42,838 bases of DNA from Deltaproteobacteria bacterium. GTDB lineage: Bacteria > Desulfobacterota > DSM-4660 > Desulfatiglandales > Desulfatiglandaceae. The DNA lies in the NCBI GenBank assembly GCA_021737785.1, contig JAIPDI010000046.1, positions 1 through 42,838 on the forward strand. Reading direction: 5' to 3'. Shown here piece after piece: positions 10,059-42,539 of this stretch (positions are counted from its first letter, which is position 1; each line of letters opens with the position of its first letter). The notes below the pieces were generated by a model that was not told the DNA's origin, made no database searches, and saw only the letters and a list, made by a program, of their open reading frames with translations. The position numbers and the translations under genes are program-made.

Positions 10059-10145
10059 GCCGAAGTGGTGGAATCTGGTAGACACGCTATCTTGAGGGGG
10101 TAGTGGGCGACGCCCGTGCGGGTTCAAGTCCCGCCTTCGGCACCA
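10059..10145 (+). tRNA. tRNA-Leu (anticodon GAG), type II tRNA with a long variable arm and encoded CCA
   Basis: Folded by hand. Acceptor GCCGAAG/CTTCGGC (7 bp), D stem GTG/CAC, anticodon stem CTATC/GGTAG with loop TTGAGGG (anticodon GAG). Variable-arm hairpin GGGCG-A-CGCCC. T arm GCGGG-TTCAAGT-CCCGC. Discriminator A + CCA. Confidence 0.9.
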
Positions 10146-10986: not shown

Positions 10987-12009
10987 TTAATTTTGCGAGT
11001 GTTTTCCCTCCCGGTCCATGATCCGGGCAGCCGGGGGTTCACCAAAAACCAATTGGGAGGGATGATCCGCGAGCACCTCCAGAAATTGATTCAGACTGTC
11101 CGTTGCCCTCTCCAGGTTCTGCGCACTGACCGAAAGGCGATCGATGAGCCGGACAGCTGCATCATCCGTTCTGCTGATAAAGGACGTCCCCTTTTCCAGC
11201 AGGATATTGGCATTCTCCACGGCCCTGACCAGTCCCGCCAGGGTCTGTTGGATCTCTTTTTCGTTTTCCGCCAGGAGTCGTTCTGCGCTTCCCAGGGTCT
11301 TGTTTGCCTGGTCCATGGTCTGCGCCGCCTGAGGCATTAATTGGTTGATGGATTGGGCCGCCTGGTCAATAGCGGCCAGGATACGATCCCACCTCTCCTC
11401 GTCCATCAGGCGGTCAGCCCCGTCCAGGGTCGAATTCAGTTTTTCGGAGATGCCCTTGACGTCGACCTCGGCCATCATCCCGTTCATGTTGTCAAGGGTT
11501 AGTTTCATTTTTTCCGAAATCCCTTTGAGGTCCAAGGTCTTGATGTGGGTGAAGACGCTATTGAGGTCTCCGAGGAGCTGACTCAATTCTGAAGGCCTTG
11601 AGGCCACGATCGGGTACTCTGAAGGAAAGCTGATATGCGGGGAACGGTCCGGTTCCCCCGGCTTTTTTCGATCCAGCTCCACGAACATGCTCCCCGTGAT
11701 GCCCACGTTTTTCAACTGCGCCACATAGCTCCGGTCGAGGGTCTGGCCTGTCTCGATCTTCATGATAACCTCTATCAGATTCGAATCCGGGGCCACCCGA
11801 ATTTTCTCCACACGGCCGATCGGCACCCCCCTGTACTTGACCGGGGCGTCCTGATTCAGGCCCTGAACCGACTCATTAAAATAGGCTGTAAAATAGTGAC
11901 CCTTCCCCAGATAGCGGGACATGCCCAGCCAGACAATCGCCATCAAGCTTATGACGATCCCGCTGACCACAAACAGCCCGACCGCAAATTTAGTTCTCTG
12001 GGAAGCCAT
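10987..12009 (-). CDS. MCE-family protein (MlaD/PqiB-like) with a C-terminal coiled-coil extension
   Basis: 340 aa. N-terminal TM, then MCE domain (YFNESVQGLNQDAPVKYRGVPIGRVEKIRV), then ~180 aa of helical Q/L/A-rich sequence. Follows mlaF-mlaE. Confidence 0.85.
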   Translation of the reverse strand: MASQRTKFAVGLFVVSGIVISLMAIVWLGMSRYLGKGHYFTAYFNESVQGLNQDAPVKYRGVPIGRVEKIRVAPDSNLIEVIMKIETGQTLDRSYVAQLKNVGITGSMFVELDRKKPGEPDRSPHISFPSEYPIVASRPSELSQLLGDLNSVFTHIKTLDLKGISEKMKLTLDNMNGMMAEVDVKGISEKLNSTLDGADRLMDEERWDRILAAIDQAAQSINQLMPQAAQTMDQANKTLGSAERLLAENEKEIQQTLAGLVRAVENANILLEKGTSFISRTDDAAVRLIDRLSVSAQNLERATDSLNQFLEVLADHPSQLVFGEPPAARIMDREGKHSQN

Positions 12010-12791
12010 TATCCGGTGCCCTTCTGATCGCCGTTTTCTTCAGCGGCCCGGCGGTTGAAAAAACGCTTAACAAACGGATTCTGACTGTGATCCCTCAAAT
12101 ACCCGGGATCGCCCTCAGCAATAATCCCCTTTGCAGCTTTGTCCAACATAATAATCCTCTGGGCCACGGTAAAGATGCTTTCAAGTTCGTGGGTGACAAT
12201 AACCATGGTGGTTCCTAGGCTCCTGTTGAGATGGAGAATAAGATCATCCAATTCCGCGGATGTGATCGGGTCAAGGCCGGCAGAAGGTTCGTCGAAAAAG
12301 AGGATCTTCGGATTCAGGGCCATGGCCCTCGCCAGCCCTGCCCGCTTTTTCATGCCTCCGCTCAATTCCGAGGGAAAATGGTTCTCATATCCCTGGAGAT
12401 TGACCAGGCCCAGTTTCATCCGGACCAGCGTATTCACCGATTCCCGGGACAGCGTGGTGTATTCCTCGATGGGCAAGGCCACATTCTGAGCAATGGTCAT
12501 GGAACCAAACAGGGCGGCCCCCTGGTAAAGAACCCCGATCTTTCTCAGTACGTCCTGGAGTTTTACCTCGTCATCGGTGGAAACCTCATCACCGTCCAAA
12601 ATGATCTGACCGGAACGGGGGGGGATAAGACCGATAATCGTCTTCAACAAGGTGCTCTTGCCGCACCCGCTCCCTCCTAATATACCAAAGACCTCTCCTT
12701 CGTATATGGTGAAAGAGACCTGGTCAAGGATAATAACATCACCATACCCCACTTTGAGATCTTTTACCTGAATAATCGGCTTCCTCGCCAT
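12009..12791 (-). CDS. mlaF: ABC transporter ATP-binding protein, MlaF-like
   Basis: 260 aa. Walker A GGSGCGKST, signature LSGGMKKRAGLA, Walker B LFFDEPSAGLD. 1-nt overlap with the MCE gene. Confidence 0.9.
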   Translation of the reverse strand: MARKPIIQVKDLKVGYGDVIILDQVSFTIYEGEVFGILGGSGCGKSTLLKTIIGLIPPRSGQIILDGDEVSTDDEVKLQDVLRKIGVLYQGAALFGSMTIAQNVALPIEEYTTLSRESVNTLVRMKLGLVNLQGYENHFPSELSGGMKKRAGLARAMALNPKILFFDEPSAGLDPITSAELDDLILHLNRSLGTTMVIVTHELESIFTVAQRIIMLDKAAKGIIAEGDPGYLRDHSQNPFVKRFFNRRAAEENGDQKGTG

Positions 12792-12800
12792 TCTGTAATT

Positions 12801-13946
12801 TTATCCCCAGTAACGAAGTATGACTGAAAAAATGGAGTCGGACAGAATGATCAGGAAGATACTGCTGACCACGGCCGACGTGGTGGCCTGTCCCACCGAT
12901 GCGGCCCCGCCGCTGACCTGAAACCCTCGAAGACAGCCTACCCAGGTGATCAATACCGCGAAGATGCCGCTCTTGAGGACGCCCCAGAATACGTCAAAGA
13001 GGGTCAGGGTCTTGATGGTCTGGGCAATATACGAATTGACGGTCAGATCCAGCATGGAGATCCCGACAATAAGCCCTCCTATGATCGCAAAGAGATCTGA
13101 AAAAAGTGTCAGGATGGGAACCATGACCACCGCCGCAATGAGCTTGGGAATGACCAGAAACAATACGGGATTAAATCCCATGGTGAAAAGTGCATCCACC
13201 TCTTCAGAGATCTTCATGGTCCCGATTTCCGCAGCAAAGGCCGATCCGGACCTTCCGGCGACGATAATGGCCGTTATGATCGGACCCAGTTCACGGGTCA
13301 TGGCCAGACTCACCAGTGAGGCGACATAGATATTGGCGCCGAATTGCTGAAGCTGAACCGAGGACATGAAGGCCATGATCAATCCCATGAGAAAGCTGAT
13401 GAGGGCCACAATGGGAAGGCCGTCCACCCCCACCCTCTGCATATACAGCAGGGTATCGCCCCTTCGAAGAGATCCGGGCCTTGCACAGACATGAATGAGT
13501 GAAAGGATGATCGAACCGATGAATGACATGGAATATTTCAGCTCTGAAATCTGCTGAATGACCGTCTCGCCGAGCCGGACGAATACCCCCGGAGGTCGCC
13601 TTTCCTGGATCGTTATCTGTTCATCCAGGGAATCAAAGTCGAGGAGAGAAAGGAGCTCCCTTACCTTGTCGCTTGCGTGAATGACATGAAACGCGGCCTT
13701 TCCCTGGGGCACCATCTTTCTCAATTCCGTCAGCACCAGCGTTCCAAAGTCATCCAGGTAATCCACGTTTTCAAGGTCTACGGTCAAGGAAGAGATCGCG
13801 TATTTTTTCAGACGGGCCGACAGTGCTTTGATCATGGGACCGGCATTGGCGGCATCCATGTTCCCGTGAATGGAGAGGGTAACGACTCCTTGGGGATCTT
13901 CGGAGACCTCATACTGAGGCATCGTGGACGTTTCAGGAATCTTCAT
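12801..13946 (-). CDS. mlaE: MlaE-family ABC permease with an N-terminal fused STAS (MlaB-like) domain
   Basis: 381 aa. The first ~110 aa look like an anti-sigma-antagonist/STAS fold (VTLSIHGNMDAANAGPMIKAL...TVDLENVDYLDDFGTLVL). The rest is a multi-TM MlaE permease core (GPIITAIIVAGRSGSAFAAEIGTMKISEEVDAL). Confidence 0.85.
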   Translation of the reverse strand: MKIPETSTMPQYEVSEDPQGVVTLSIHGNMDAANAGPMIKALSARLKKYAISSLTVDLENVDYLDDFGTLVLTELRKMVPQGKAAFHVIHASDKVRELLSLLDFDSLDEQITIQERRPPGVFVRLGETVIQQISELKYSMSFIGSIILSLIHVCARPGSLRRGDTLLYMQRVGVDGLPIVALISFLMGLIMAFMSSVQLQQFGANIYVASLVSLAMTRELGPIITAIIVAGRSGSAFAAEIGTMKISEEVDALFTMGFNPVLFLVIPKLIAAVVMVPILTLFSDLFAIIGGLIVGISMLDLTVNSYIAQTIKTLTLFDVFWGVLKSGIFAVLITWVGCLRGFQVSGGAASVGQATTSAVVSSIFLIILSDSIFSVILRYWG

Positions 13947-13973: not shown

Positions 13974-15296
13974 TTATTCAAGCTCTTCAAAACGGAAGAC
14001 CCTGAGATCCGTTTCATCCGCATTATATTTGCTTTTAAGAAGCTCCATATCCATTTGAAAGATCAGCCATCCTCTATTCGCATCATTCAGTCTGAACGCA
14101 ATTTCTGTGTACCGAATTCCCATCGGGTGATCTTTGTGTTCCCGGTAAAGGGATAACACCTTATAGGGCGCCCGCTCCCCCTCACCCAGATCGATGCCGG
14201 AATAACTGCTCCCTATCATTGCCTCCCCATCGACGCCGGGGAGGATGGAATAGGCGTCGAATACCCGCTTGTCTTCCCCAAGCAGCACCAGACCTGTAAC
14301 AGGGATATCGACCCCCTTCTGGGCATCAAAAAAACTTTTCATCACATCGGTTGTCTCCTGCCGGTCGCCGGCCTCAAAGGGTTCCACCAGCAAAGACTGG
14401 AGCAGACGGAAATCCACGGCCAGGTCATCCTTCAGCTCTTGTTTTTTGACATCGGTGATGTGGTACCCCTTTGAAAAATAGGGATACCCGAAAAAAATGC
14501 CGGCCACTAACATGACCAACAGGGCAGATAATGGGATGAAACATCGTTTCACGCGTTGATATCGTTTTGCCACAATCTCTGTCTGGGTGACATCCCTCCC
14601 CAGGAACAGAACTCCCTCAAAATTGTGCTGACCATCGTACAGGACGGTTGTGCTTGTGGAAACATGGCGTATCCCCTCTTTGGGATGTTTGACCCTGAGG
14701 GTCTTTTCACTCACCGCCTGTTTGGATATCACTTCCTCCAGAAAGCGCCTGTATGCGGCAGGGTCTTCATAAATTTCTTCCACGGGCGTATACCGCATCT
14801 GATCTTCTTCCCTGCCATACAATTTTTCAGCCGCATGGTTCCACGACAAAATTTTTCCGCTCTTATCGGTCAGAATCACCGCATCCGGAAGCTGATCGCA
14901 GAATTCCCTGAGCCCGTAAACGATCTGGCTGGTCTCGTGAAGCCGCTTGGCCAGATCCCTGGCAAATTCTCCCACAGCCTCCGGAAATTCAATGAGAAAA
15001 TTAGGGATTTCCTCCTTGGGAAGCTTTATGACCTTGAGGTCGGTCACCGCCTTGACAGTGGCCGTCCTGCTCTCCCCCAAGAGGAAGGACATCTCCCCGA
15101 ACACGGACCCTTCACCCGATATTTCCGCTATTTCTTTGGTCCCCTTAAAAACGCCTACTTTCCCCTCCACCACGATATAGACATCCTGGGAGTCATCGCC
15201 CTCGAGAAAAACCGTCTGGCCCGTCTCAAAGCGGACGACATATTTATCTAATTTCGTATTGTCAGTAATGGAACTTACCATGGGAACGCAATCCAA
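13974..15296 (-). CDS. Membrane signalling protein: N-terminal cNMP-binding domain + PAS domain + single TM + C-terminal ~170-aa extracytoplasmic domain. No enzymatic output domain.
   Basis: 440 aa. CAP-family cNMP fold (VFLEGDDSQDVYIVVEGKVGVF...GEGSVFGEMSFL...RTATVKA). PAS (DAVILTDKSGKILSWNHAAEKLYG). TM (CFIPLSALLVMLVAGIFFGYPYF). 27 nt upstream of mlaE on the same strand. Confidence 0.75.
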   Translation of the reverse strand: MDCVPMVSSITDNTKLDKYVVRFETGQTVFLEGDDSQDVYIVVEGKVGVFKGTKEIAEISGEGSVFGEMSFLLGESRTATVKAVTDLKVIKLPKEEIPNFLIEFPEAVGEFARDLAKRLHETSQIVYGLREFCDQLPDAVILTDKSGKILSWNHAAEKLYGREEDQMRYTPVEEIYEDPAAYRRFLEEVISKQAVSEKTLRVKHPKEGIRHVSTSTTVLYDGQHNFEGVLFLGRDVTQTEIVAKRYQRVKRCFIPLSALLVMLVAGIFFGYPYFSKGYHITDVKKQELKDDLAVDFRLLQSLLVEPFEAGDRQETTDVMKSFFDAQKGVDIPVTGLVLLGEDKRVFDAYSILPGVDGEAMIGSSYSGIDLGEGERAPYKVLSLYREHKDHPMGIRYTEIAFRLNDANRGWLIFQMDMELLKSKYNADETDLRVFRFEELE

Positions 15297-17542: not shown

Positions 17543-17959
17543 TTGGCATTCATGACAATTCGACGATCCTTTGAGATACTGGAATTAGAACCGGGTGCGA
17601 CCCTGAATGATGCGCGCCAGGCCTATAAAGATATCGCCAATGTCTGGCACCCGGATCGTTTTGCTGCGAATCCGCGCCTGAAGCACAAGGCCGAGCAGAA
17701 ATTGAAAGAAGTCAATGTTGCTTACGAAACGGCAAAGGCCTTTTTTCAAGAGAGCACACTGTCAAATAGTGCCGTGAAAGAAGAAGTAGATGATACCTCT
17801 CCACAGACACACCACGGGAATTACGGAAACGGCCAACACGCTGCCAAAGAAAGGAGTCGGACGGAAATTGCTGCCGAAGTGGGAACGGCACTTATCCTTA
17901 GCTTCTGCTCTTATGTTTCTACCCAGTTGCATCATTTCGTGGAAAAGAAGCGACCCTAA
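17543..17959 (+). CDS. J-domain (DnaJ-like) protein with a hydrophobic C-terminal segment
   Basis: 138 aa. J domain with HPD motif (SFEILELEPGATLNDARQAYKDIANVWHPDRF...VNVAYETAKAFF). C-terminal IAAEVGTALILSFCSYV may be a membrane anchor. Confidence 0.7.
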   Translation: MAFMTIRRSFEILELEPGATLNDARQAYKDIANVWHPDRFAANPRLKHKAEQKLKEVNVAYETAKAFFQESTLSNSAVKEEVDDTSPQTHHGNYGNGQHAAKERSRTEIAAEVGTALILSFCSYVSTQLHHFVEKKRP

Positions 17960-18174
17960 CCGGCAGATGGGATGGGAACACCGAGAACCATTTCGGTAAA
18001 TATTTGTTTTTTAGTTGAAATTTCCTGAAAACTGTAGTAATAGATTCTCCGGTGTGATTTCCATACCATTCACGGGGTCAACAAAACGGCTCTTTATTAC
18101 TTCAGGCATGAATTAGAGAATCCGGGACCTGTGAACATTTGATAATTTATCTTTGCATCTTGGAAAAGGGAGGT

Positions 18175-18546
18175 ATGAAAATGAAGAGATTAAAGAGGGA
18201 CCTGCAGTCTGTGATCAAGAACCTAAAGGCACTGACAGAAAAGACCGAAAAAATTGCAAAGCGATTGGACGCGGCGGAGAAGGTTAAGGCCGCCCCCAAC
18301 CGGCCCGTAAAGGCTGGCAAGCCTGCTGGCAAGCCTGCTGGCAAGTCCGCAGCCAGAAAGAAAGCCCCTGCAACGGCCACCGACACCGTCTTGAGCATTA
18401 TCAAGCGGCAGAAAAAGGGGATTGATACGGCTGCGCTGAAAAGCAAAACAGACCTTGATACAAAAACCATAAGAAACGTGATTTTCAGACTTAAAAAACA
18501 GGGGAAGATTCAATCCACCACGCGAGGCGTCTATATGGCGGCATAA
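18175..18546 (+). CDS. Lys/Ala-rich histone-H1-like protein with a (K)PAGK repeat and a C-terminal winged-helix-like segment. Hypothetical DNA-binding protein.
   Basis: Start chosen at MKMKRLKR, 7 nt after the RBS AAAGGGAGG (the track ORF starts 36 nt earlier). Contains KAGKPAGKPAGKSAARKKAPA. The C-terminus DTVLSIIKRQKKGIDTAALKSKTDLDTKTIRNVIFRLKKQGKIQSTTRGVY resembles a wHTH. Confidence 0.55.
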   Translation: MKMKRLKRDLQSVIKNLKALTEKTEKIAKRLDAAEKVKAAPNRPVKAGKPAGKPAGKSAARKKAPATATDTVLSIIKRQKKGIDTAALKSKTDLDTKTIRNVIFRLKKQGKIQSTTRGVYMAA

Positions 18547-18840
18547 CCCCGGGGTGATGGCCCTCCTTCTGCGCTTTCGGGGGCAGCCTTGGTCGGCCGG
18601 AGGACTCGTCTGATCAAGAAAGATCCGCCTCTGAATATCCCTATTGTATCGCGCTCTGGTGGTGCCGGGAATTCGATGCCGCATGGGATTACACTTCTCG
18701 ATTGGAAGCCTTGAACCGTTTTGTGTGAGCGTTGTGTTTTCGAGAGAATCGTCTAGCGCTGTCACTCTCATATCCAGGGTCAGTGGGAGCGCCGTCCGGG
18801 GATGGACGAGGTGGATCCCGATGAGATAAGGAGGAAAGAC

Positions 18841-19143
18841 ATGCAAAAAAAAATAAAAAAGGGTATGGCCTCGGTGTTGATTTCAGCCCTGCTTTTTTTC
18901 CATTTTGCGGCGATAGCCCCGGCACAGGAACACCTTCAAGACCTGGATGAAAAAGCCGGTTTCATGGCGGGGGATTTCCTGGTCGTACGTCCATTGGGAA
19001 TCGCCGCGACCGCTGTGGGCGCCGTGCTCTATGTGCTCTCTCTCCCCTTTTCCCTGGCAGGTGGAAACGAGGAGGAGGCACGACAGAAACTTGTCGTTGA
19101 TCCTGCCACATATACCTTTACAAGGCCGTTGGGAGAGCCCTGA
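18841..19143 (+). CDS. Small hypothetical secreted/membrane protein
   Basis: Start at MQKKIKKG, after the RBS TAAGGAGGAAAGAC. Signal-peptide-like N-terminus and a second hydrophobic helix. No recognisable family. Confidence 0.4.
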   Translation: MQKKIKKGMASVLISALLFFHFAAIAPAQEHLQDLDEKAGFMAGDFLVVRPLGIAATAVGAVLYVLSLPFSLAGGNEEEARQKLVVDPATYTFTRPLGEP

Positions 19144-19197
19144 AAAAGTCGTTCCACAGGCTTCCCATGGATCACGGTCAGACCCGCGGGACTTTTG

Positions 19198-19611
19198 CTA
19201 CTCGACGCCTCTCAGACGCCGCCCTAATGTCTGGAGCAGTTCAATGGCAATAGCCGGGTATTTTTTGATCTCTTCCCGGATATTCCATTGGTCCAGGGAA
19301 AGGACTTCGGTGTCCGCCTGCGCGATGACGCTTGCCGTGCGGACATAGTCATCGATTAAGGCCATCTCACCAAAGTAGTTATCGGCCCTGAGAACCCTCA
19401 AGGTCTTTTCAGACGGCCCTCCCAGATCCTTTACCACGGTTACCTCCCCTGAAATGATAATAAACAGGCGGCCGTCGCGCTCGCCCTCCCTGATAATGAC
19501 GTCTTCCTTTTCATACGAGTGATGTTTCGCCAATTTTGCGATACGCTTTAAATCGCGTCTTTTCATCAGAGAAAAAAGGGCGACTCTTGACAGGATCTCT
19601 GCATCGTCCAT
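19198..19611 (-). CDS. Stand-alone cyclic-nucleotide-binding (CAP-family) domain protein
   Basis: 137 aa. IIREGERDGRLFIIISGEVTVV...NYFGEMALIDDYVRTASVIA is the cNMP phosphate-binding cassette pattern (FGE...R.A). Confidence 0.8.
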   Translation of the reverse strand: MDDAEILSRVALFSLMKRRDLKRIAKLAKHHSYEKEDVIIREGERDGRLFIIISGEVTVVKDLGGPSEKTLRVLRADNYFGEMALIDDYVRTASVIAQADTEVLSLDQWNIREEIKKYPAIAIELLQTLGRRLRGVE

Positions 19612-19638
19612 GGGTACACTCCTTTGGGAAGCCTGTTC

Positions 19639-20337
19639 TTACAAAAGATATTCCGGGTTTACATTCTGCAATGCATGGAAGATATTTCCCTTGACCTTTG
19701 TGTTTGACCGGTAAAGACCTTGAAGCATGCCCTTGATTTCTTCCCTTTTTGATGAACCCGCGCTCGGGCAGCCCAGTTCGATCCGCTCCCATCCCATTGC
19801 CTTTGCATACCGCTGAATAAGGTCTTCGTCGATCAAATAAAGGGGTCGGATCACCGTAAGCGCTCCTTTAAAGAACTCCTGAACCGGGAGCATGGTACTT
19901 ATGGAGGCACCGTAAAATACGTTCAGAAAGAAGGTCTCGATGATGTCATCCTTATGATGCCCGAAGGCAATCCGGGTGCAGCCGATCTCTCCAGCCAGCT
20001 CAAAGAGGATCTTTCTTCTCATGCGGGAGCATATAAAGCATGGGTTTTCCCGGTTATCCGGACTGTGGGCCTGGGGGCCGATCTGAGTCTTGATCACCCG
20101 GTAATCAAAGCCGTGGGTCGAGAAAAAGAGGCCCATCTGTTCGGCCGAATCCGTCCCGAAGCCCGGGTCCACGTGGACCGCAGTGATCCGGTATTGGATC
20201 GGAATCCGTCGAATCCGTTCCTGCAAGAGCCACAGGAGAGAAAGGCTGTCCTTTCCACCTGACACTGCCACCAGCAGGTGATCGCCGTCATGGATCATCT
20301 GATGGGTGTGAATGGCCTTCCCCATCAGGCGCCTCAT
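19639..20337 (-). CDS. ttcA: PP-loop tRNA thiolase, TtcA/TtuA family (tRNA 2-thiocytidine synthase-like)
   Basis: PP-loop SGGKDS, central CxxC (CFICSRMRR), HHKDD. Start is uncertain: placed at MRRLMGK (20337). The upstream in-frame ATGs (to 20511) lack homology-like sequence. Confidence 0.75.
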   Translation of the reverse strand: MRRLMGKAIHTHQMIHDGDHLLVAVSGGKDSLSLLWLLQERIRRIPIQYRITAVHVDPGFGTDSAEQMGLFFSTHGFDYRVIKTQIGPQAHSPDNRENPCFICSRMRRKILFELAGEIGCTRIAFGHHKDDIIETFFLNVFYGASISTMLPVQEFFKGALTVIRPLYLIDEDLIQRYAKAMGWERIELGCPSAGSSKREEIKGMLQGLYRSNTKVKGNIFHALQNVNPEYLL

Positions 20338-20913
20338 CTCTTTTGCAGCGAATGCCAAATATTGACCTCCATGATGCGCGCACCAGGAGAATAGTAGATC
20401 CACGTACATAGTGGACACGTCCCAACAGGGTCCGAATCCCAGGCACATAAAAAAGGAACCCGCATCTTTCAGCACACCGATTCCCAGGATTGCACAAAGA
20501 CCATTTGACAACAGGACTCAAACGGATTGCTGTTGTAAGTCTGTTCTAATCGGTTCATCCAACCTGGGTCAAGAATTTTCGTGTGAAAAGCGGATCTGGT
20601 TGATGCCTTATGGATGCCAATTACAGACTGCTCTTCCCTGCGGGAACGAGTTTCCATCGACCGGGTGCGGGATAAGAACATCCATGCCGCGACCTGAGTA
20701 TCGTCGGCGGTTGGGGGCACTTCCCGTGAAAAAGGGGCCGAGAAATCAATATTCCGCTTGACAATCGAAGCGATTTCAGAATGAAATGAGTGGGAATGGG
20801 ACGCTTAAGCCCTCGGGGTTCCTTTCCAGAATCTCTAAAAAAAGAAAATTCGGAGTGCTCTGTCAATGGTTGTGGTAGCAAGCGCGGCGTCATCAGGCAA
20901 AGGAGTGAAAACA

Positions 20914-21687
20914 ATGACAGGCACGCATCCAAACCGCTTTCCAGTTATCAGCTTGGCATACCGGGAAGGAGATCTGATCATCAAGCAAGGCGATTACGGG
21001 ATCTCCATCTATAAAATCATTAAGGGCAGGGTTTTTGTTTTTAAGGAATCCGGTGATAAGGAAATCGCCCTTACGACCTTGAATCCTGGCGAGATTTTCG
21101 GAGAGATCGCCTTTTTGAATAGGGACCGGGAGACCCGCTCCGCATCAGCCAGGGCACTTGAAGAAACTGAGCTCGAAGTATGGCATCCCTCTATGTTGTC
21201 AAAGGAATACCAGGAGATGCCCCCAATGCTCAAGTATGTAGTCGACCAGCTATTAACCCGTCTTCTCCGAATGGGTCAAGTCCTGGTTCAGCTGTCGGAC
21301 CAGGAACAGAAGAGACGGAAGGCCTCGGAGAAACGGGATCCATTTGTTTCCGAGCGGTGCTATTACCGTAAGGCTGTCGACTTGGAGTGTTATTATCGAC
21401 CTGCCGCGCTGTCGCCGAAGGCTCGTCTGTCAGGGCGAATCAAGGATATAAGTCTCAGCGGAGTCGGGATGGAGATAGCGGTCCGGAACGCATCAAGTTT
21501 TTCTCATATGGAAAGCGATTTGTTTATCTTAAATACGGTCTTGCCCAACGGAAAAGATCTCGAATTGAAAGCCAAAATCGTGTCACTCAACCAGAGTGAA
21601 ACGCCGAACAAATTGCTGATAGGCATGACTTTTATAGAATTGACAGAAAATGCAAAGAAGGTGCTCGGCTTTTTCTTGATGGCTTGA
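20914..21687 (+). CDS. cNMP-binding domain fused to a C-terminal PilZ (c-di-GMP-binding) domain
   Basis: Start at MTGTHPN, after the RBS AAAGGAGTGAAAACA. cNMP cassette (GEIFGEIAFL...RSASARA). The C-terminal ~110 aa have PilZ-like motifs (RKAVDLECYYRP ... DISLSGVGMEI). Confidence 0.7.
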   Translation: MTGTHPNRFPVISLAYREGDLIIKQGDYGISIYKIIKGRVFVFKESGDKEIALTTLNPGEIFGEIAFLNRDRETRSASARALEETELEVWHPSMLSKEYQEMPPMLKYVVDQLLTRLLRMGQVLVQLSDQEQKRRKASEKRDPFVSERCYYRKAVDLECYYRPAALSPKARLSGRIKDISLSGVGMEIAVRNASSFSHMESDLFILNTVLPNGKDLELKAKIVSLNQSETPNKLLIGMTFIELTENAKKVLGFFLMA

Positions 21688-21702
21688 TAAGGAGGTTGAC
21701 CT

Positions 21703-22128
21703 ATGGACATAATGCCGTTCATGCAGATGTACCTGTCCACGGAGGAGACCTATGAATCCGGCGACATTATAATCGAAGAAGGAAGCAGGGGCAACTGGGT
21801 CTATGTTGTTCTGGCTGGGCAGGTAAAGGTAACCAAGAGGACGGAAGTGGGAATTGTGACCATGGATACCCTGAAGCAAGGCGCCGTTTTTGGAGAAATG
21901 GCCATGTTGGGGAAGTTCATGGACGGACGGAGCGCCTCAGTGATCGCTGCGGATGGGCCTGTCAAGTTAGGTGTGCTGAACTTCGAGCTTCTTCGCAGGG
22001 ACTACGACTCCCTTTCTCCTCAACTCAAGTTGCTGATCGATGCACTGATCGTAAGGCTCAAAGAATGCAACGAAAGGGCCGCGGCCTTTGTAGTGGCAGC
22101 TAATCCGAAAAATCGAGGGGAAAAATAG
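21703..22128 (+). CDS. Stand-alone cyclic-nucleotide-binding domain protein
   Basis: 141 aa. RBS AAGGAGG. IIIEEGSRGNWVYVVLAGQVKV...GAVFGEMAMLG...RSASVIA. 15 nt downstream of the previous cNMP gene. Confidence 0.75.
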   Translation: MDIMPFMQMYLSTEETYESGDIIIEEGSRGNWVYVVLAGQVKVTKRTEVGIVTMDTLKQGAVFGEMAMLGKFMDGRSASVIAADGPVKLGVLNFELLRRDYDSLSPQLKLLIDALIVRLKECNERAAAFVVAANPKNRGEK

Positions 22129-22815: not shown

Positions 22816-23177
22816 GGCTTCTCTCCTCCGGCAAAAACCCCACCCGTGCGCTCCCCATGGTGGATGGCTGTTCAGAATAGGCAAGGCCGAGCCGCACAGG
22901 TCAAAAGACCTCGGAAATCGTCTCATCGTTGCCTCGTCGGGTTTGTGCGCCGGGCCCGGCTCTGTCAATCCGGCCCTTTTCCCCTGTCTGAGGCGACATG
23001 CATACGTGCAGGCCGTTCATCAGGTAAGATCTCACTTTTAGTCATTCACGGCCCTTGGAAAACTGATACTCCATTTTGTGGAGAGTGTAAAGCGCGTTGC
23101 AGGCCAGGCAGATTGAGTTTTCGGAAATAATGGTATATATGGTATATATATTGAAGGAACTTGAGATCATTGTCATC

Positions 23178-23627
23178 ATGGGGGACGATATGGCCGCGGA
23201 TAAGGACAAAGGACATTTCGCAAAGAAACATCAGGCTGGCGCCAAGGCGAATCCAGAGATCGAAGCAGCCCTGAAGCAGGAAGTTTCGAACGGAGAACTT
23301 CCATGCGCTGTTGCATTCAAGATAGCATCTGATCTGGACGTCCAACCGGGAGAGGTGGGACATGTCGCGGATCTTCTCGAAATGCGTCTTACAAAGTGCC
23401 AGTTGGGGCTTTTCGGATACCGGCCGGCAAAGCGGATCGTCGAGCCGGCAGAAATAGTATCGCCGGATCTCGAAGAGGCCATCAAAGAAAGGCTGGAAAA
23501 CGGAAGGCTGCCGTGCGTGAGCGCATGGAACATCGCGAAATCCCTGGGCCTTCGAAAAATGGCGGTCTCATCGGCATGCCAGGCCCTGGGCATCAAGATC
23601 ACTTCGTGCCAGATAGGGGCCTTTTGA
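23178..23627 (+). CDS. Hypothetical protein built from two ~45-aa repeats, each carrying conserved Cys (LPCAVAFKIA...TKCQLGLF / LPCVSAWNIA...TSCQIGAF)
   Basis: Internal duplication seen by eye. Four aligned Cys. Start (MGDD or MAAD) uncertain. Family not recognised. Confidence 0.5.
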   Translation: MGDDMAADKDKGHFAKKHQAGAKANPEIEAALKQEVSNGELPCAVAFKIASDLDVQPGEVGHVADLLEMRLTKCQLGLFGYRPAKRIVEPAEIVSPDLEEAIKERLENGRLPCVSAWNIAKSLGLRKMAVSSACQALGIKITSCQIGAF

Positions 23628-40178: not shown

Positions 40179-42539
40179 ATGAACACAGAAAGATTTGAGC
40201 GCAAACTGACCGCTATCCTAAGCGCCGATGTCAAAGGGTACAGTCGTCTCATGAGGGCCGATGAGGATGAGACTGTCCGGACGCTCACGGCTTACCGAAG
40301 GGCTATCGCCAGGCTTGTCGTGAAATACCGCGGGAGGGTGGTGGATTCTCCGGGCGATAATCTCCTGGCCGAATTTGGGAGTGGTTTAGATGCGGTGAAT
40401 TGCGCTGTAGAGATTCAGCGGGAACTCGCCGAGCGAAATGAGGAGTTAACCCCTGAGCGCAAGATGGAATTTCGCATCGGTGTCAACTCAGGGGATGTTA
40501 TTCAGGAAGGAGAACGGATCTACGGGGACGGTGTCAACATCGCAGCGAGAGTCGAGGGCTTGGCTGCAGGGGGAGGGATTTCCATCTCTGGGACGGTGTA
40601 TGACAGCATTGAGGGTAAGCTGGGATTGGAGTTTGAGTATCAGGGGGAGCACGAGGTCAAGAATATTGACAAACCGATACGAGTGTATCGAATTCTATCT
40701 TATCCTGGCGCAGCCGCTCACAGAGTTATAAAGGCGAAAAGGGCTGTAGGAAAAACATGGCGTAATGTTGTCTTGTCAATAGTCGTTGTCCTTATTCTGG
40801 GTGGAGGGGCCTTGGCAGTCTGGCACTCTTACTTACGTCCCTCACCTACTAAGGTGGAGGTTGCCTCCAAAAAAGCCCCTGCTCCTAAGTCATCCGACAA
40901 GACGCCAATACCTGTATCTGATGAGCCCTCTATCGCAGTTCTCCCTTTTGCCAACATCAGCGGCGACCCAAAGGAAGACTATCTGAGTGACGGGATCACT
41001 GAACAGATTATCACGGCGCTGTCCAAAACACCACGGATGTTGGTGATTGCCCGCAATTCGGTCTTTACCTACAAAGGCAAGCCCGTGATGGTGCAGCAGG
41101 TCAGCGAGGAGCTGGGTGTGCGGTATGTGCTGGAGGGAAGTGTTCAAAAATCGGGAGACAAACTGCGGATCACGGCCCAGCTCATTGATGCCAGGACAGG
41201 GAATCACCTATGGTCGGAACGCTACGACCGGGACCTGAAAGACCTGTTTGCCCTCCAGGATGGTATCACGAAGAACGTGATAACGGCCTTGCAGGTTAAA
41301 CTAACAGAGGGAGAGACTGCGTCTGGTTTAGGCAAAGGCACAAAAAACCTGGAGGCATACCTGAAATTGTTGAAGGGGCGATACCATCATTTGCGCTTTA
41401 ATAAAAATGATAATGAGATAGCCCGACGGTTATATGGAGAGGCCATTGCATTGGACCCCAATTATGCCCGCCCATATGTACTATTGGCCTGGACTTATTT
41501 CCATGAAGCCGAGTTTGGATGGACCAAAACCCCTGGAAAATCATATGAGAAGGCTGTAGAACTGGCAAAGAAGCCACTCTCCCTTAATGAACAAAGCCCC
41601 CGAGCTTACATGGTGTTAGCCAATGTGTATGCTAAGACAGGGCAATTTGACAAGGCTGTGGCTGCGCAAAAAAAAGCCTTAGCCCTCGATCCCGCCAGCT
41701 CTCTTATAAACGCCTTCTCTGGCAATGCTCTGTTCAGTGCGGGCAAGTTCAAGGAAGCTATTCCATTTTTTGAGAAGGCGATCCGTATAGACCCCAAACA
41801 CCCAAGCTGGTACCTCTCTCCATTGGGCGGGGCCTATTTCTGGACAGGCCAGTATGAGAAGGCTATTGCGATAGCTAAAAAAGGGGTCAGTCACGCGCCT
41901 AAGAACGCTGACGCACATGCCTATTTAGGGGTTGCTCTTATTGCTGCAGGCAAGCCGGAGGAAGCCGTTGGGATGCTTGACAAAGCGTTGAGCCTGAACC
42001 CGGATAGTCTAGGTTGGTACAGTCCAGGTTGGTACGCAGGCAACTTAGCCGTTGCCCGTGCCTGCACGGGACAAACTGAGGAAGCCATTACAACGATGCA
42101 GGAAGTGTTTAATCGTAACCCTAAAGATGCTGAATCCTGCCGTAATTTGTCATGGGTTCTGATCCTTACAGGGCGGCACGAGGAAGCCCTTTCGATGGCT
42201 AAAAAATCAATAAGCCTCAGACCTAAGCCTGAACGTGAACCGTTTGTCTATGAGACTTTAGGTTTTTCATATCTTGTGATGGGCCAGTATGAAGAGGCGA
42301 TCGCAGCATTTAAGAAAGCGATCGATCTTTGGCCTGACTTTTTGTCTTCGCACATTGGTTTGACAGCATCTTATAGCCTGTCAGGCCGTATGGAAGACGC
42401 TGGTGCTGAAGCCGAAGAGATTCTGAGAATAAATCCGAGAACCTCTTTGGAGAGTATTGGTAAGTATGGTTGGTATAATTTTCAGAGGGCCACCAAGGAA
42501 CGCTTAATCGACGCTCTGCAGAAGGCTGGTTTGAAGTGA
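40179..42539 (+). CDS. Class III adenylate/guanylate cyclase (CHD) - TM - TolB-N-like domain - TPR repeat protein
   Basis: 786 aa. Cyclase domain (ILSADVKGYSRLM...SPGDNLLAEFGS...GVNIAARVEGLA). One TM (VVLSIVVVLILGGGALAV). Then IAVLPFANISGDPKEDYLSDGITEQI. Then about 10 TPR-like repeats. Confidence 0.85.
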   Translation: MNTERFERKLTAILSADVKGYSRLMRADEDETVRTLTAYRRAIARLVVKYRGRVVDSPGDNLLAEFGSGLDAVNCAVEIQRELAERNEELTPERKMEFRIGVNSGDVIQEGERIYGDGVNIAARVEGLAAGGGISISGTVYDSIEGKLGLEFEYQGEHEVKNIDKPIRVYRILSYPGAAAHRVIKAKRAVGKTWRNVVLSIVVVLILGGGALAVWHSYLRPSPTKVEVASKKAPAPKSSDKTPIPVSDEPSIAVLPFANISGDPKEDYLSDGITEQIITALSKTPRMLVIARNSVFTYKGKPVMVQQVSEELGVRYVLEGSVQKSGDKLRITAQLIDARTGNHLWSERYDRDLKDLFALQDGITKNVITALQVKLTEGETASGLGKGTKNLEAYLKLLKGRYHHLRFNKNDNEIARRLYGEAIALDPNYARPYVLLAWTYFHEAEFGWTKTPGKSYEKAVELAKKPLSLNEQSPRAYMVLANVYAKTGQFDKAVAAQKKALALDPASSLINAFSGNALFSAGKFKEAIPFFEKAIRIDPKHPSWYLSPLGGAYFWTGQYEKAIAIAKKGVSHAPKNADAHAYLGVALIAAGKPEEAVGMLDKALSLNPDSLGWYSPGWYAGNLAVARACTGQTEEAITTMQEVFNRNPKDAESCRNLSWVLILTGRHEEALSMAKKSISLRPKPEREPFVYETLGFSYLVMGQYEEAIAAFKKAIDLWPDFLSSHIGLTASYSLSGRMEDAGAEAEEILRINPRTSLESIGKYGWYNFQRATKERLIDALQKAGLK

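Follow-up and report, generated by a model that had tools for sequence, protein, structure and literature searches.

A conserved gene pair of Desulfobacterota encodes a cNMP-PilZ fusion protein and a stand-alone cyclic-nucleotide-binding partner

Three short open reading frames (ORFs) that carry a cyclic-nucleotide-binding domain lie within 3 kb in contig JAIPDI010000046.1 of a deltaproteobacterium, together with a gene for a TtcA-like tRNA thiolase, and they raise the question of whether they form one functional cluster and of what proteins with such a sensor and so little else may do. The whole stretch of 42,838 bp, hereafter the window, was analysed; it is a complete contig of a metagenome-assembled genome (MAG), and the closest to it in the genome collection is an uncultured MAG of Desulfobacteraceae (locus L001). 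The three genes are called here cNMP1, the fusion, in which the domain that binds cyclic nucleoside monophosphates (cNMP), abbreviated CNB, is followed by a PilZ domain, and cNMP3 (coordinates in Table 1). The original prediction described one cluster organised around the thiolase. Comparison across genomes resolves it into two independent modules that lie back-to-back only in this lineage, namely module A, made of the thiolase and cNMP1, and module B, made of the fusion and cNMP3. Module B stands by itself as an operon of two genes and is conserved throughout the sampled Desulfobacterota. The reading preferred here, with a probability of about 0.6, is that the first gene of this operon encodes an adaptor with neither an enzymatic nor a DNA-binding domain, which would integrate cNMP and cyclic di-GMP (c-di-GMP) signals and work together with the truncated partner.

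It is clear that cNMP1, the fusion and cNMP3 are genuine genes and not chance ORFs, given that the conserved family of each of these small proteins numbers hundreds of entries in the databases. A strong Shine-Dalgarno sequence (AAGGAG) stands ahead of the starts at 20914, 21703 and 19611, and the Pfam cNMP_binding domain was recovered in all three proteins (60.8 bits in the fusion, the other scores being listed in Table 1, versus a gathering threshold of 27.5). The fold that characterises the CAP/PKA-type domain PF00027, an eight-stranded beta-barrel with a hinge and a C-helix after it, is present, and the cassette FGE...R[ST]A can be read in all of them. The assignment of the fusion's C-terminal half to PilZ is borne out by Pfam (PF07238, 33.5 bits versus a gathering threshold of 22.5), and both PilZ motifs, RxxxR and DxSxxG as defined in bioRxiv 10.1101/814665, are intact. 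The suspicion that these proteins could be ordinary regulators with an overlooked helix-turn-helix (HTH) can be set aside, because Pfam and NCBIfam detect no HTH in cNMP1, the fusion or cNMP3. The same searches found no output domain in any of the three, and the CRP-type models of NCBIfam score far under their cut-offs and align to the CNB part only. The label 'CRP/FNR family transcriptional regulator', which one source attaches to members of all three families (P0003-P0005, P0122, P0123, P0279 and others), is an over-annotation.

The pairing of the fusion with cNMP3 was followed in 80 fusion loci, sampled from Desulfobacteraceae, Desulfatiglandales including strain NaphS2, Eth-SRB2, TRIP AH-1 and Ca. 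Adiutricales. An orthologue of cNMP3 lies directly 3' of the fusion in 77 of these loci by tblastn and in one more where it is cut by the contig end, which amounts to 78 of the 78 assessable loci; the other two contigs break off at the fusion and are hence not assessable. The gap between the two genes has a median of 16 nucleotides (nt), with 57 of 75 gaps falling within 10-23 nt. In related genomes, gene neighbourhood is conserved for the pair and not for the genes beside it. The thiolase, cNMP1, YggS and a GAF histidine kinase accompany the pair in only 4 of the 80 loci, which are the closest relatives (L001, L003, L005 and L006, with L005 lacking cNMP1). The flanks otherwise differ by lineage and comprise an MrfA-type helicase with an ABC-F protein, NAD synthase with queuosine genes, a POR subunit, thiolase-type enzymes, or TtcA with YggS. 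De novo clustering of the 804 neighbouring ORFs revealed no third gene common to all lineages that could serve as the output of the pair. Among these flanking genes, the MrfA-type helicase (approximately 970 amino acids; DEAD, Helicase_C, MZB and RNase_H_2 domains) is divergent from the pair in 31 loci, for example at L007 2881..5826 (-), and the ABC-F ATPase is convergent downstream of it in 29 loci. Both are on the opposite strand to the pair, and this arrangement probably reflects the synteny of a sub-clade.

Over barrel, hinge and C-helix, the sequence of cNMP3 is 35% identical to the fusion's CNB, and it scores on average 48.5 bits versus the fusion CNB domains and 37-40 bits versus the cNMP1 family. 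Judged by these similarities, cNMP3 is a paralogue of the N-terminal sensor of the fusion. It nonetheless forms a discrete family of its own, given that the scores fall from 118 to 46 bits, at which point ordinary CRP regulators start. Family sizes are compact (257 amino acids for the fusion, 133-141 for the partner), and the Glu and Arg of the cassette are retained in most cNMP3 orthologues. Across genomes, the divergence of the partner co-varies with that of the fusion (r=0.84), no less tightly than the fusion's own two halves co-vary with each other (r=0.76), which shows co-inheritance as a unit and not physical interaction.

The start of the fusion is placed at 20914 and not at the upstream ATG at 20866, given the strong Shine-Dalgarno sequence at the former and the length of the orthologues, which is approximately 257 amino acids. 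A search with this protein gave 569 relatives of about that length, and all the named sources are Desulfobacterota; the best 120 of the 569 measure 252-295 amino acids and nearly all have both Pfam domains; a precomputed PF07238 match is on record for most family members. An exhaustive profile search gave 94 fusion representatives at E<=1e-30, approximately 60 of them full-length clusters at 50% identity. Within the cassette, E64 and R75 are invariant and G63 is nearly so in 96 sequences of the fusion family. Among 69 genome-derived members, the cassette Glu and Arg are kept in nearly all, RxxxR is kept in every one (69/69), and D/NxSxxG is found in its strict form in 67 and in its relaxed form in 69. 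The C-terminal tail is conserved to a similar degree, with G252 invariant, L251, F253 and F254 nearly invariant, and an [LI]GFF[LM] tail in 67 of the 69. When the PilZ half is aligned as a profile, its RxxxR and D/NxSxxG fall in register with the motifs of MotI, RxxxR standing opposite RRQYVR.

With respect to rarity, the original prediction was right for one part and not for the other. The cNMP-PilZ fusion is uncommon, as had been claimed, whereas cNMP receptors with no output domain are not unusual, since stand-alone CNB proteins are common and several of them are structural-genomics entries in the PDB. A second and independent cNMP-PilZ fusion of 231 amino acids was noticed in another context (P0487, L166 2199..2894); it has a stronger PilZ match (54 bits), lies among VWA_CoxE, NUDIX and AMMECR1 genes, and has no CNB partner downstream. 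Given the independence of this fusion and its different context, the architecture has arisen more than once.

Structure prediction with AlphaFold2 (AF2) is consistent with these assignments. The model of the fusion, built with 96 sequences, has a predicted local distance difference test (pLDDT) of 79.7 and is laid out as a CNB barrel (residues 12-90), a hinge helix (92-100), a C-helix of 37 residues (104-140), a low-confidence linker that carries RxxxR (141-152), a six-stranded barrel (153-242) and a C-terminal helix (245-255), the last with pLDDT above 80. According to this model, RxxxR begins only about eight residues past the point where the C-helix stops, in a flexible linker. In the model of cNMP3 (pLDDT 82.6; predicted template modelling score, pTM, 0.73), this barrel, hinge and C-helix recur as the only elements. 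For both sensors the closest structure found by Foldseek is the cNMP domain of Bd1971, to which that of the fusion is 34-35% identical, with a TM-score of up to 0.89.

These features suggest how the pair may work. In the two-domain PilZ proteins YcgR, PlzD and PP4397, c-di-GMP clamps the RxxxR linker onto the barrel. CRP and Bd1971 dimerise via the C-helix, and the binding of a cNMP repositions the hinge and the C-helix (PMC6717892). In the fusion, the CNB sensor would bind cyclic AMP (cAMP) or cyclic GMP (cGMP) and the PilZ domain would bind c-di-GMP. Given that RxxxR starts about eight residues after the C-helix, both ligand-induced rearrangements would act on the same element, formed by the C-helix end and the linker, and in this manner the two messengers would be integrated. 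Such integration could plausibly be cooperative or antagonistic. The cNMP3 protein, which has the same C-helix, may pair with the fusion through that helix, or may compete for the surface by which the fusion dimerises, and would then set the stoichiometry or the asymmetry of the complex. Since the fusion carries no enzymatic or DNA-binding domain, the output would occur by protein-protein contact, probably through the hydrophobic C-terminal helix of PilZ, LGFF(L/M)MP.

One type of gene beside the pair suggests a partner for this contact. A DUF6982-MshEN-T2SSE ATPase of the PilB/MshE type (770-800 amino acids) is adjacent to the pair or operonic with it on the same strand, in two gene orders, upstream of it in L002 (917..3229) and L004, and downstream with gaps of 21-26 nt in L055 and L062. 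In L055 (811..9588), genes for Zn-ribbon-Cache-HAMP, PAS-PAS and REC-DUF4388 proteins precede the ATPase. It has been reported that MshEN is a c-di-GMP receptor (PMC5013675) and that PilZ binds PilB in Xanthomonas (PMC8389850). This ATPase is the only genomic lead to a target, and it is put forward tentatively, as a candidate that will perhaps not hold. The more elaborate version, in which an asymmetric C-helix heterodimer would act as a coincidence detector or comparator for cNMP and c-di-GMP and would signal via the PilZ C-terminal helix to a PilB/MshE-type ATPase, is speculative and, in its entirety, unlikely. No riboswitch or other RNA element was found by Rfam in the approximately 500 bp upstream of the fusion, at gathering or permissive thresholds; the only Rfam match in the window is a tRNA (10059..10142).

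Several observations weigh against the adaptor reading or parts of it. With a pTM of 0.42, the fusion model does not define how its two domains are oriented to each other. In sequence, the PilZ half diverges from the PilZ proteins of solved structure, with MotI as the best profile match and a weak one (E=0.058), and with no match from a single sequence. The residue that follows the cassette Arg can differ from Ser and Thr, since 51 of the 69 fusions and 55 of the 69 partners have the strict R[ST]A form, and one sub-clade of cNMP3 has a partly degenerate cassette. The co-variation of the two genes would be equally expected from simple co-inheritance. The association with the ATPase is limited to 4 of the 80 loci, and there is no T2SSE homologue within the window.

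Module A presents a different picture. The cNMP1 family is separate and highly conserved, with a mean column identity of 83% and an invariant FGEMAL...R.AS cassette. The neighbouring thiolase has SGGKDS, CFIC (CxxC) and a third Cys that align with those of the [4Fe-4S] thiolases NcsA and TtuA, its best relatives in the PDB, and it is best called TtcA-like because its score lies below the cut-off of the NCBIfam TtcA equivalog NF007972 (192 versus 272 bits). Co-transcription of the thiolase and cNMP1, which had been proposed from the 27-nt gap between them on the same strand, is plausible, given that a terminator-like hairpin lies after cNMP1 whereas there is none between this gene and the thiolase. 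The linkage is nonetheless lineage-limited, to about half of the contexts in one sub-clade. In the cNMP1 clade delimited by 70% identity or more, a TtcA-like gene lies directly upstream of cNMP1 with gaps of approximately 17-45 nt in eight loci (L081, L082, L087, L089, L090, L092, L094 and L095), two of which were confirmed to have no fusion nearby, and it is absent from that position in seven (L083-L086, L088, L091 and L093); in the contexts examined it is never found upstream of cNMP1 homologues below 65% identity. Steadier neighbours of cNMP1 than the thiolase are a convergent small ORF with two transmembrane (TM) segments, a winged HTH (wHTH) protein and a J-domain protein. In the window these genes encode the J-domain protein at 17543..17959 (+), the wHTH protein with a linker rich in Lys, Ala and Pro at 18139..18546 (+), and the 113-residue 2-TM protein at 18802..19143 (+), and they are co-conserved across the cNMP1 clade of at least 70% identity (L082-L091). 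No evidence that cNMP1 works with the fusion-cNMP3 pair was seen in these comparisons.

The main alternative for the sensors is that the CNB domains do not bind cAMP or cGMP, and act instead as a dimerisation scaffold or as receptors for another ligand, so that the fusion would be a receptor for c-di-GMP as a single messenger. CNB-fold domains do sense other signals in FNR, CooA and NtcA, and the CNB-fold domain of Xanthomonas Clp binds c-di-GMP, as cited in PMC12564702; the variable residue after the cassette Arg, the degenerate cassette of some cNMP3 orthologues and the non-canonical substrate-specifying residues of the only cyclase in the window point in the same direction. The Gly-Glu and the Arg through which CRP, PKA and Bd1971 make contact with ribose and phosphate are, however, invariant or nearly so in the fusions and present in most cNMP3 proteins, and Bd1971, the closest relative of solved structure, binds both cAMP and cGMP, which makes this alternative improbable, though not negligible. 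A second doubt concerns the partner and not the ligand. Since cNMP3 is a paralogue and duplicates often remain adjacent, it could be independent of the fusion, a cNMP buffer or an adaptor for some other target that has been co-inherited after a tandem duplication. Against this, the adjacency survives down to approximately 40% identity while all other neighbours are shuffled, the 57 short gaps among 75 loci are of the type seen in translational coupling, the cNMP3 family is discrete, with the abrupt drop in score described above, and the longest contigs with members of the cNMP3 family match those with the fusion. Independence of the two proteins is accordingly considered unlikely.

The two remaining alternatives concern the locus as a whole. 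A single functional cluster of all three cNMP receptors around the thiolase, which would link cyclic-nucleotide signalling to tRNA thiolation, is in line with the short gap between the thiolase and cNMP1, which is free of a terminator, and with the recurrence of this gene order in the eight further loci, contexts devoid of the fusion among them. However, TtcA stands beside the pair only in the four closest relatives, one of which has no cNMP1, TtcA itself is missing upstream of cNMP1 in seven loci of its own clade and from the homologues below 65% identity, and other genes are more constant neighbours of cNMP1. For this reason, a cluster of this kind is quite improbable. A Pycsar-like anti-phage system, with a cyclase and CNB-containing effectors, would be suggested by the matches of PADLOC to its PycTIR and PycC profiles, but these are weak (27-54 bits) and span only the generic CNB part, about 30-150 of approximately 300 positions. 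No effector module of the TIR or TM type accompanies them, 18 kb separate the cyclase from these genes, the chromosomal surroundings are housekeeping ones (kdsA-lptCAB-rpoN-hpf-ptsN, gap and tpi), and the divergence of the pair is that of a co-inherited unit. A Pycsar or other defence-system reading was rejected, since the profile match is limited to the CNB and there is neither a TIR/TM module nor an adjacent cyclase, and its probability is very close to nil. The adaptor reading of module B is thus the one retained.

Table 1. Positions of the genes of modules A and B and of their sequence elements in the window
Feature	Coordinates	Strand	Basis
cNMP-PilZ fusion, module B gene 1, 257 amino acids, CNB and PilZ	20914..21687	+	Pfam
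Shine-Dalgarno AAGGAG, 8 nt before the ATG at 20914	20900..20905	+	read from sequence
CNB phosphate-binding cassette of the fusion, residues 62-78, FGEIAFLNRDRETRSAS	21097..21147	+	read from sequence
Long C-helix, residues 104-140, candidate dimerisation helix of the CRP/Bd1971 type	21223..21333	+	AF2 secondary structure
PilZ RxxxR (RCYYR, residues 148-152), in the flexible linker	21355..21369	+	read from sequence
PilZ D/NxSxxG (DISLSG, residues 178-183)	21445..21462	+	read from sequence
C-terminal tail LGFFLMA (family consensus LGFF[LM]MP), candidate docking helix	21664..21684	+	conservation, AF2
cNMP3, module B gene 2, stand-alone CNB of 141 amino acids	21703..22128	+	Pfam 54.3 bits, AF2
Shine-Dalgarno AAGGAGG of cNMP3, within the 15-nt intergenic gap	21689..21695	+	read from sequence
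cNMP1, module A gene 2, stand-alone CNB of 137 amino acids	19198..19611	-	Pfam 72.2 bits
TtcA-like PP-loop [4Fe-4S] tRNA thiolase, module A gene 1	19639..20406	-	PF01171 63 bits; start uncertain, ORF open to 20511
Terminator-like hairpin and T-run just after the cNMP1 stop	19153..19171	-	consensus scan only

The surroundings of both modules are ordinary chromosomal housekeeping genes, including kdsA, lptCAB, rpoN, hpf, ptsN, gap, tpi, an Mla-like transporter, YggS and Ham1. Both other genes of the window that had been pointed out as linked to cNMP are real. The protein encoded at 13974..15296 (-), of 440 amino acids, has cytoplasmic cNMP_binding and PAS domains and one TM segment (residues 249-275), followed by about 165 C-terminal amino acids that have no Pfam or NCBIfam match; its gene, noted together with 10987..13946 (-), lies directly upstream of an operon for a STAS-MlaE, ABC ATPase and MlaD-like transporter. 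The gene at 40179..42539 (+) encodes a class III cyclase with TPR. In this enzyme an Asp ('VDSPGD') replaces the substrate-specifying Lys of 3mr7 and Ma1120, two adenylate cyclases of solved structure, and an Arg stands in place of the adenine-specifying Asp of 3mr7. Its product may be cAMP, cGMP or another compound, and its matches to PycC in PADLOC are weak. A conserved ORF at 23097..23627 (+), of approximately 146-176 amino acids, has no Pfam or NCBIfam match and contains two internal Cys-containing repeats ('LPC.. A..IA..L'); it is kept beside YggS in close relatives.

Known cross-talk between cAMP or cGMP and c-di-GMP proceeds via enzymes, such as Bd1971 and XC_0249, or via transcription factors. 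A small receptor that has intact sites for both classes of messenger, but neither an enzymatic nor a DNA-binding output, would integrate the two signals directly and physically, and the fact that a truncated copy of its sensor is its obligate partner suggests that a means of tuning this integration is built in. Should the heterodimer and its ATPase target prove true, the pair would represent a new class of enzyme-free, dual-second-messenger adaptor for a pilus or secretion motor in sulfate-reducing Desulfobacterota. The fusion family lends itself to experiment, given that it is compact, is present in a named strain, Delta proteobacterium NaphS2, and has motifs that suit point-mutant controls. 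The analysis also corrects the widespread labelling of proteins that have no HTH as CRP/FNR regulators.

The resemblance of the three proteins to the CRP/FNR transcription factors lies in the CNB barrel, the phosphate-binding cassette and the C-helix. The difference is that none of the three has a C-terminal HTH; they end after the C-helix, in the case of cNMP1 and cNMP3, or run into PilZ. Closer to the fusion is Bd1971 of Bdellovibrio bacteriovorus (PDB 6HQ2-6HQ7; PMC6717892), a cNMP-EAL protein that is a cAMP-activated c-di-GMP phosphodiesterase. The output of Bd1971 is an enzyme that degrades c-di-GMP, whereas the fusion has a non-catalytic PilZ receptor in its place and an obligate truncated paralogue downstream. 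XC_0249 of Xanthomonas campestris (PMC3770947) has a cNMP domain fused to GGDEF and is a cGMP-activated diguanylate cyclase. Here again a cNMP domain is joined to a domain of the c-di-GMP network, with cross-talk of two messenger classes, but the output is enzymatic (c-di-GMP synthesis), the gene is linked to that of a cognate cyclase, and no PilZ is present.

On the PilZ side, YcgR, MotI(DgrA), PlzD and PP4397 are two-domain adaptors of the PilZN/xPilZ-PilZ type, whereas the N-terminus of the fusion is a CNB and not a degenerate PilZ-like domain. The fusion does not group with flagellar brakes of the YcgR/MotI type, scoring 15.7 bits against the NCBIfam YcgR model NF047947, for which the cut-off is 400, and, in contrast with such adaptors, it has no flagellar genes nearby. 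The PilZ-FimX-PilB system of Xanthomonas and the MshEN ATPases offer a parallel in which a PilZ-fold adaptor acts on an ATPase of the PilB family, an ATPase of this kind being next to the pair in the four loci mentioned; the Xanthomonas PilZ protein differs in having neither the c-di-GMP motifs nor a CNB domain (PMC8389850). The cNMP-PilZ architecture is already present in public databases, under a generic name or the mistaken label of a CRP/FNR regulator, and no mention of it was found in the searchable literature, which includes reviews of cAMP/c-di-GMP cross-talk and does not extend to subscription journals. What appears to be new with respect to all these systems, as judged from the domain and family comparisons, is a PilZ adaptor that has a second-messenger sensor as its N-terminal partner domain and that is accompanied by an obligate truncated paralogue.

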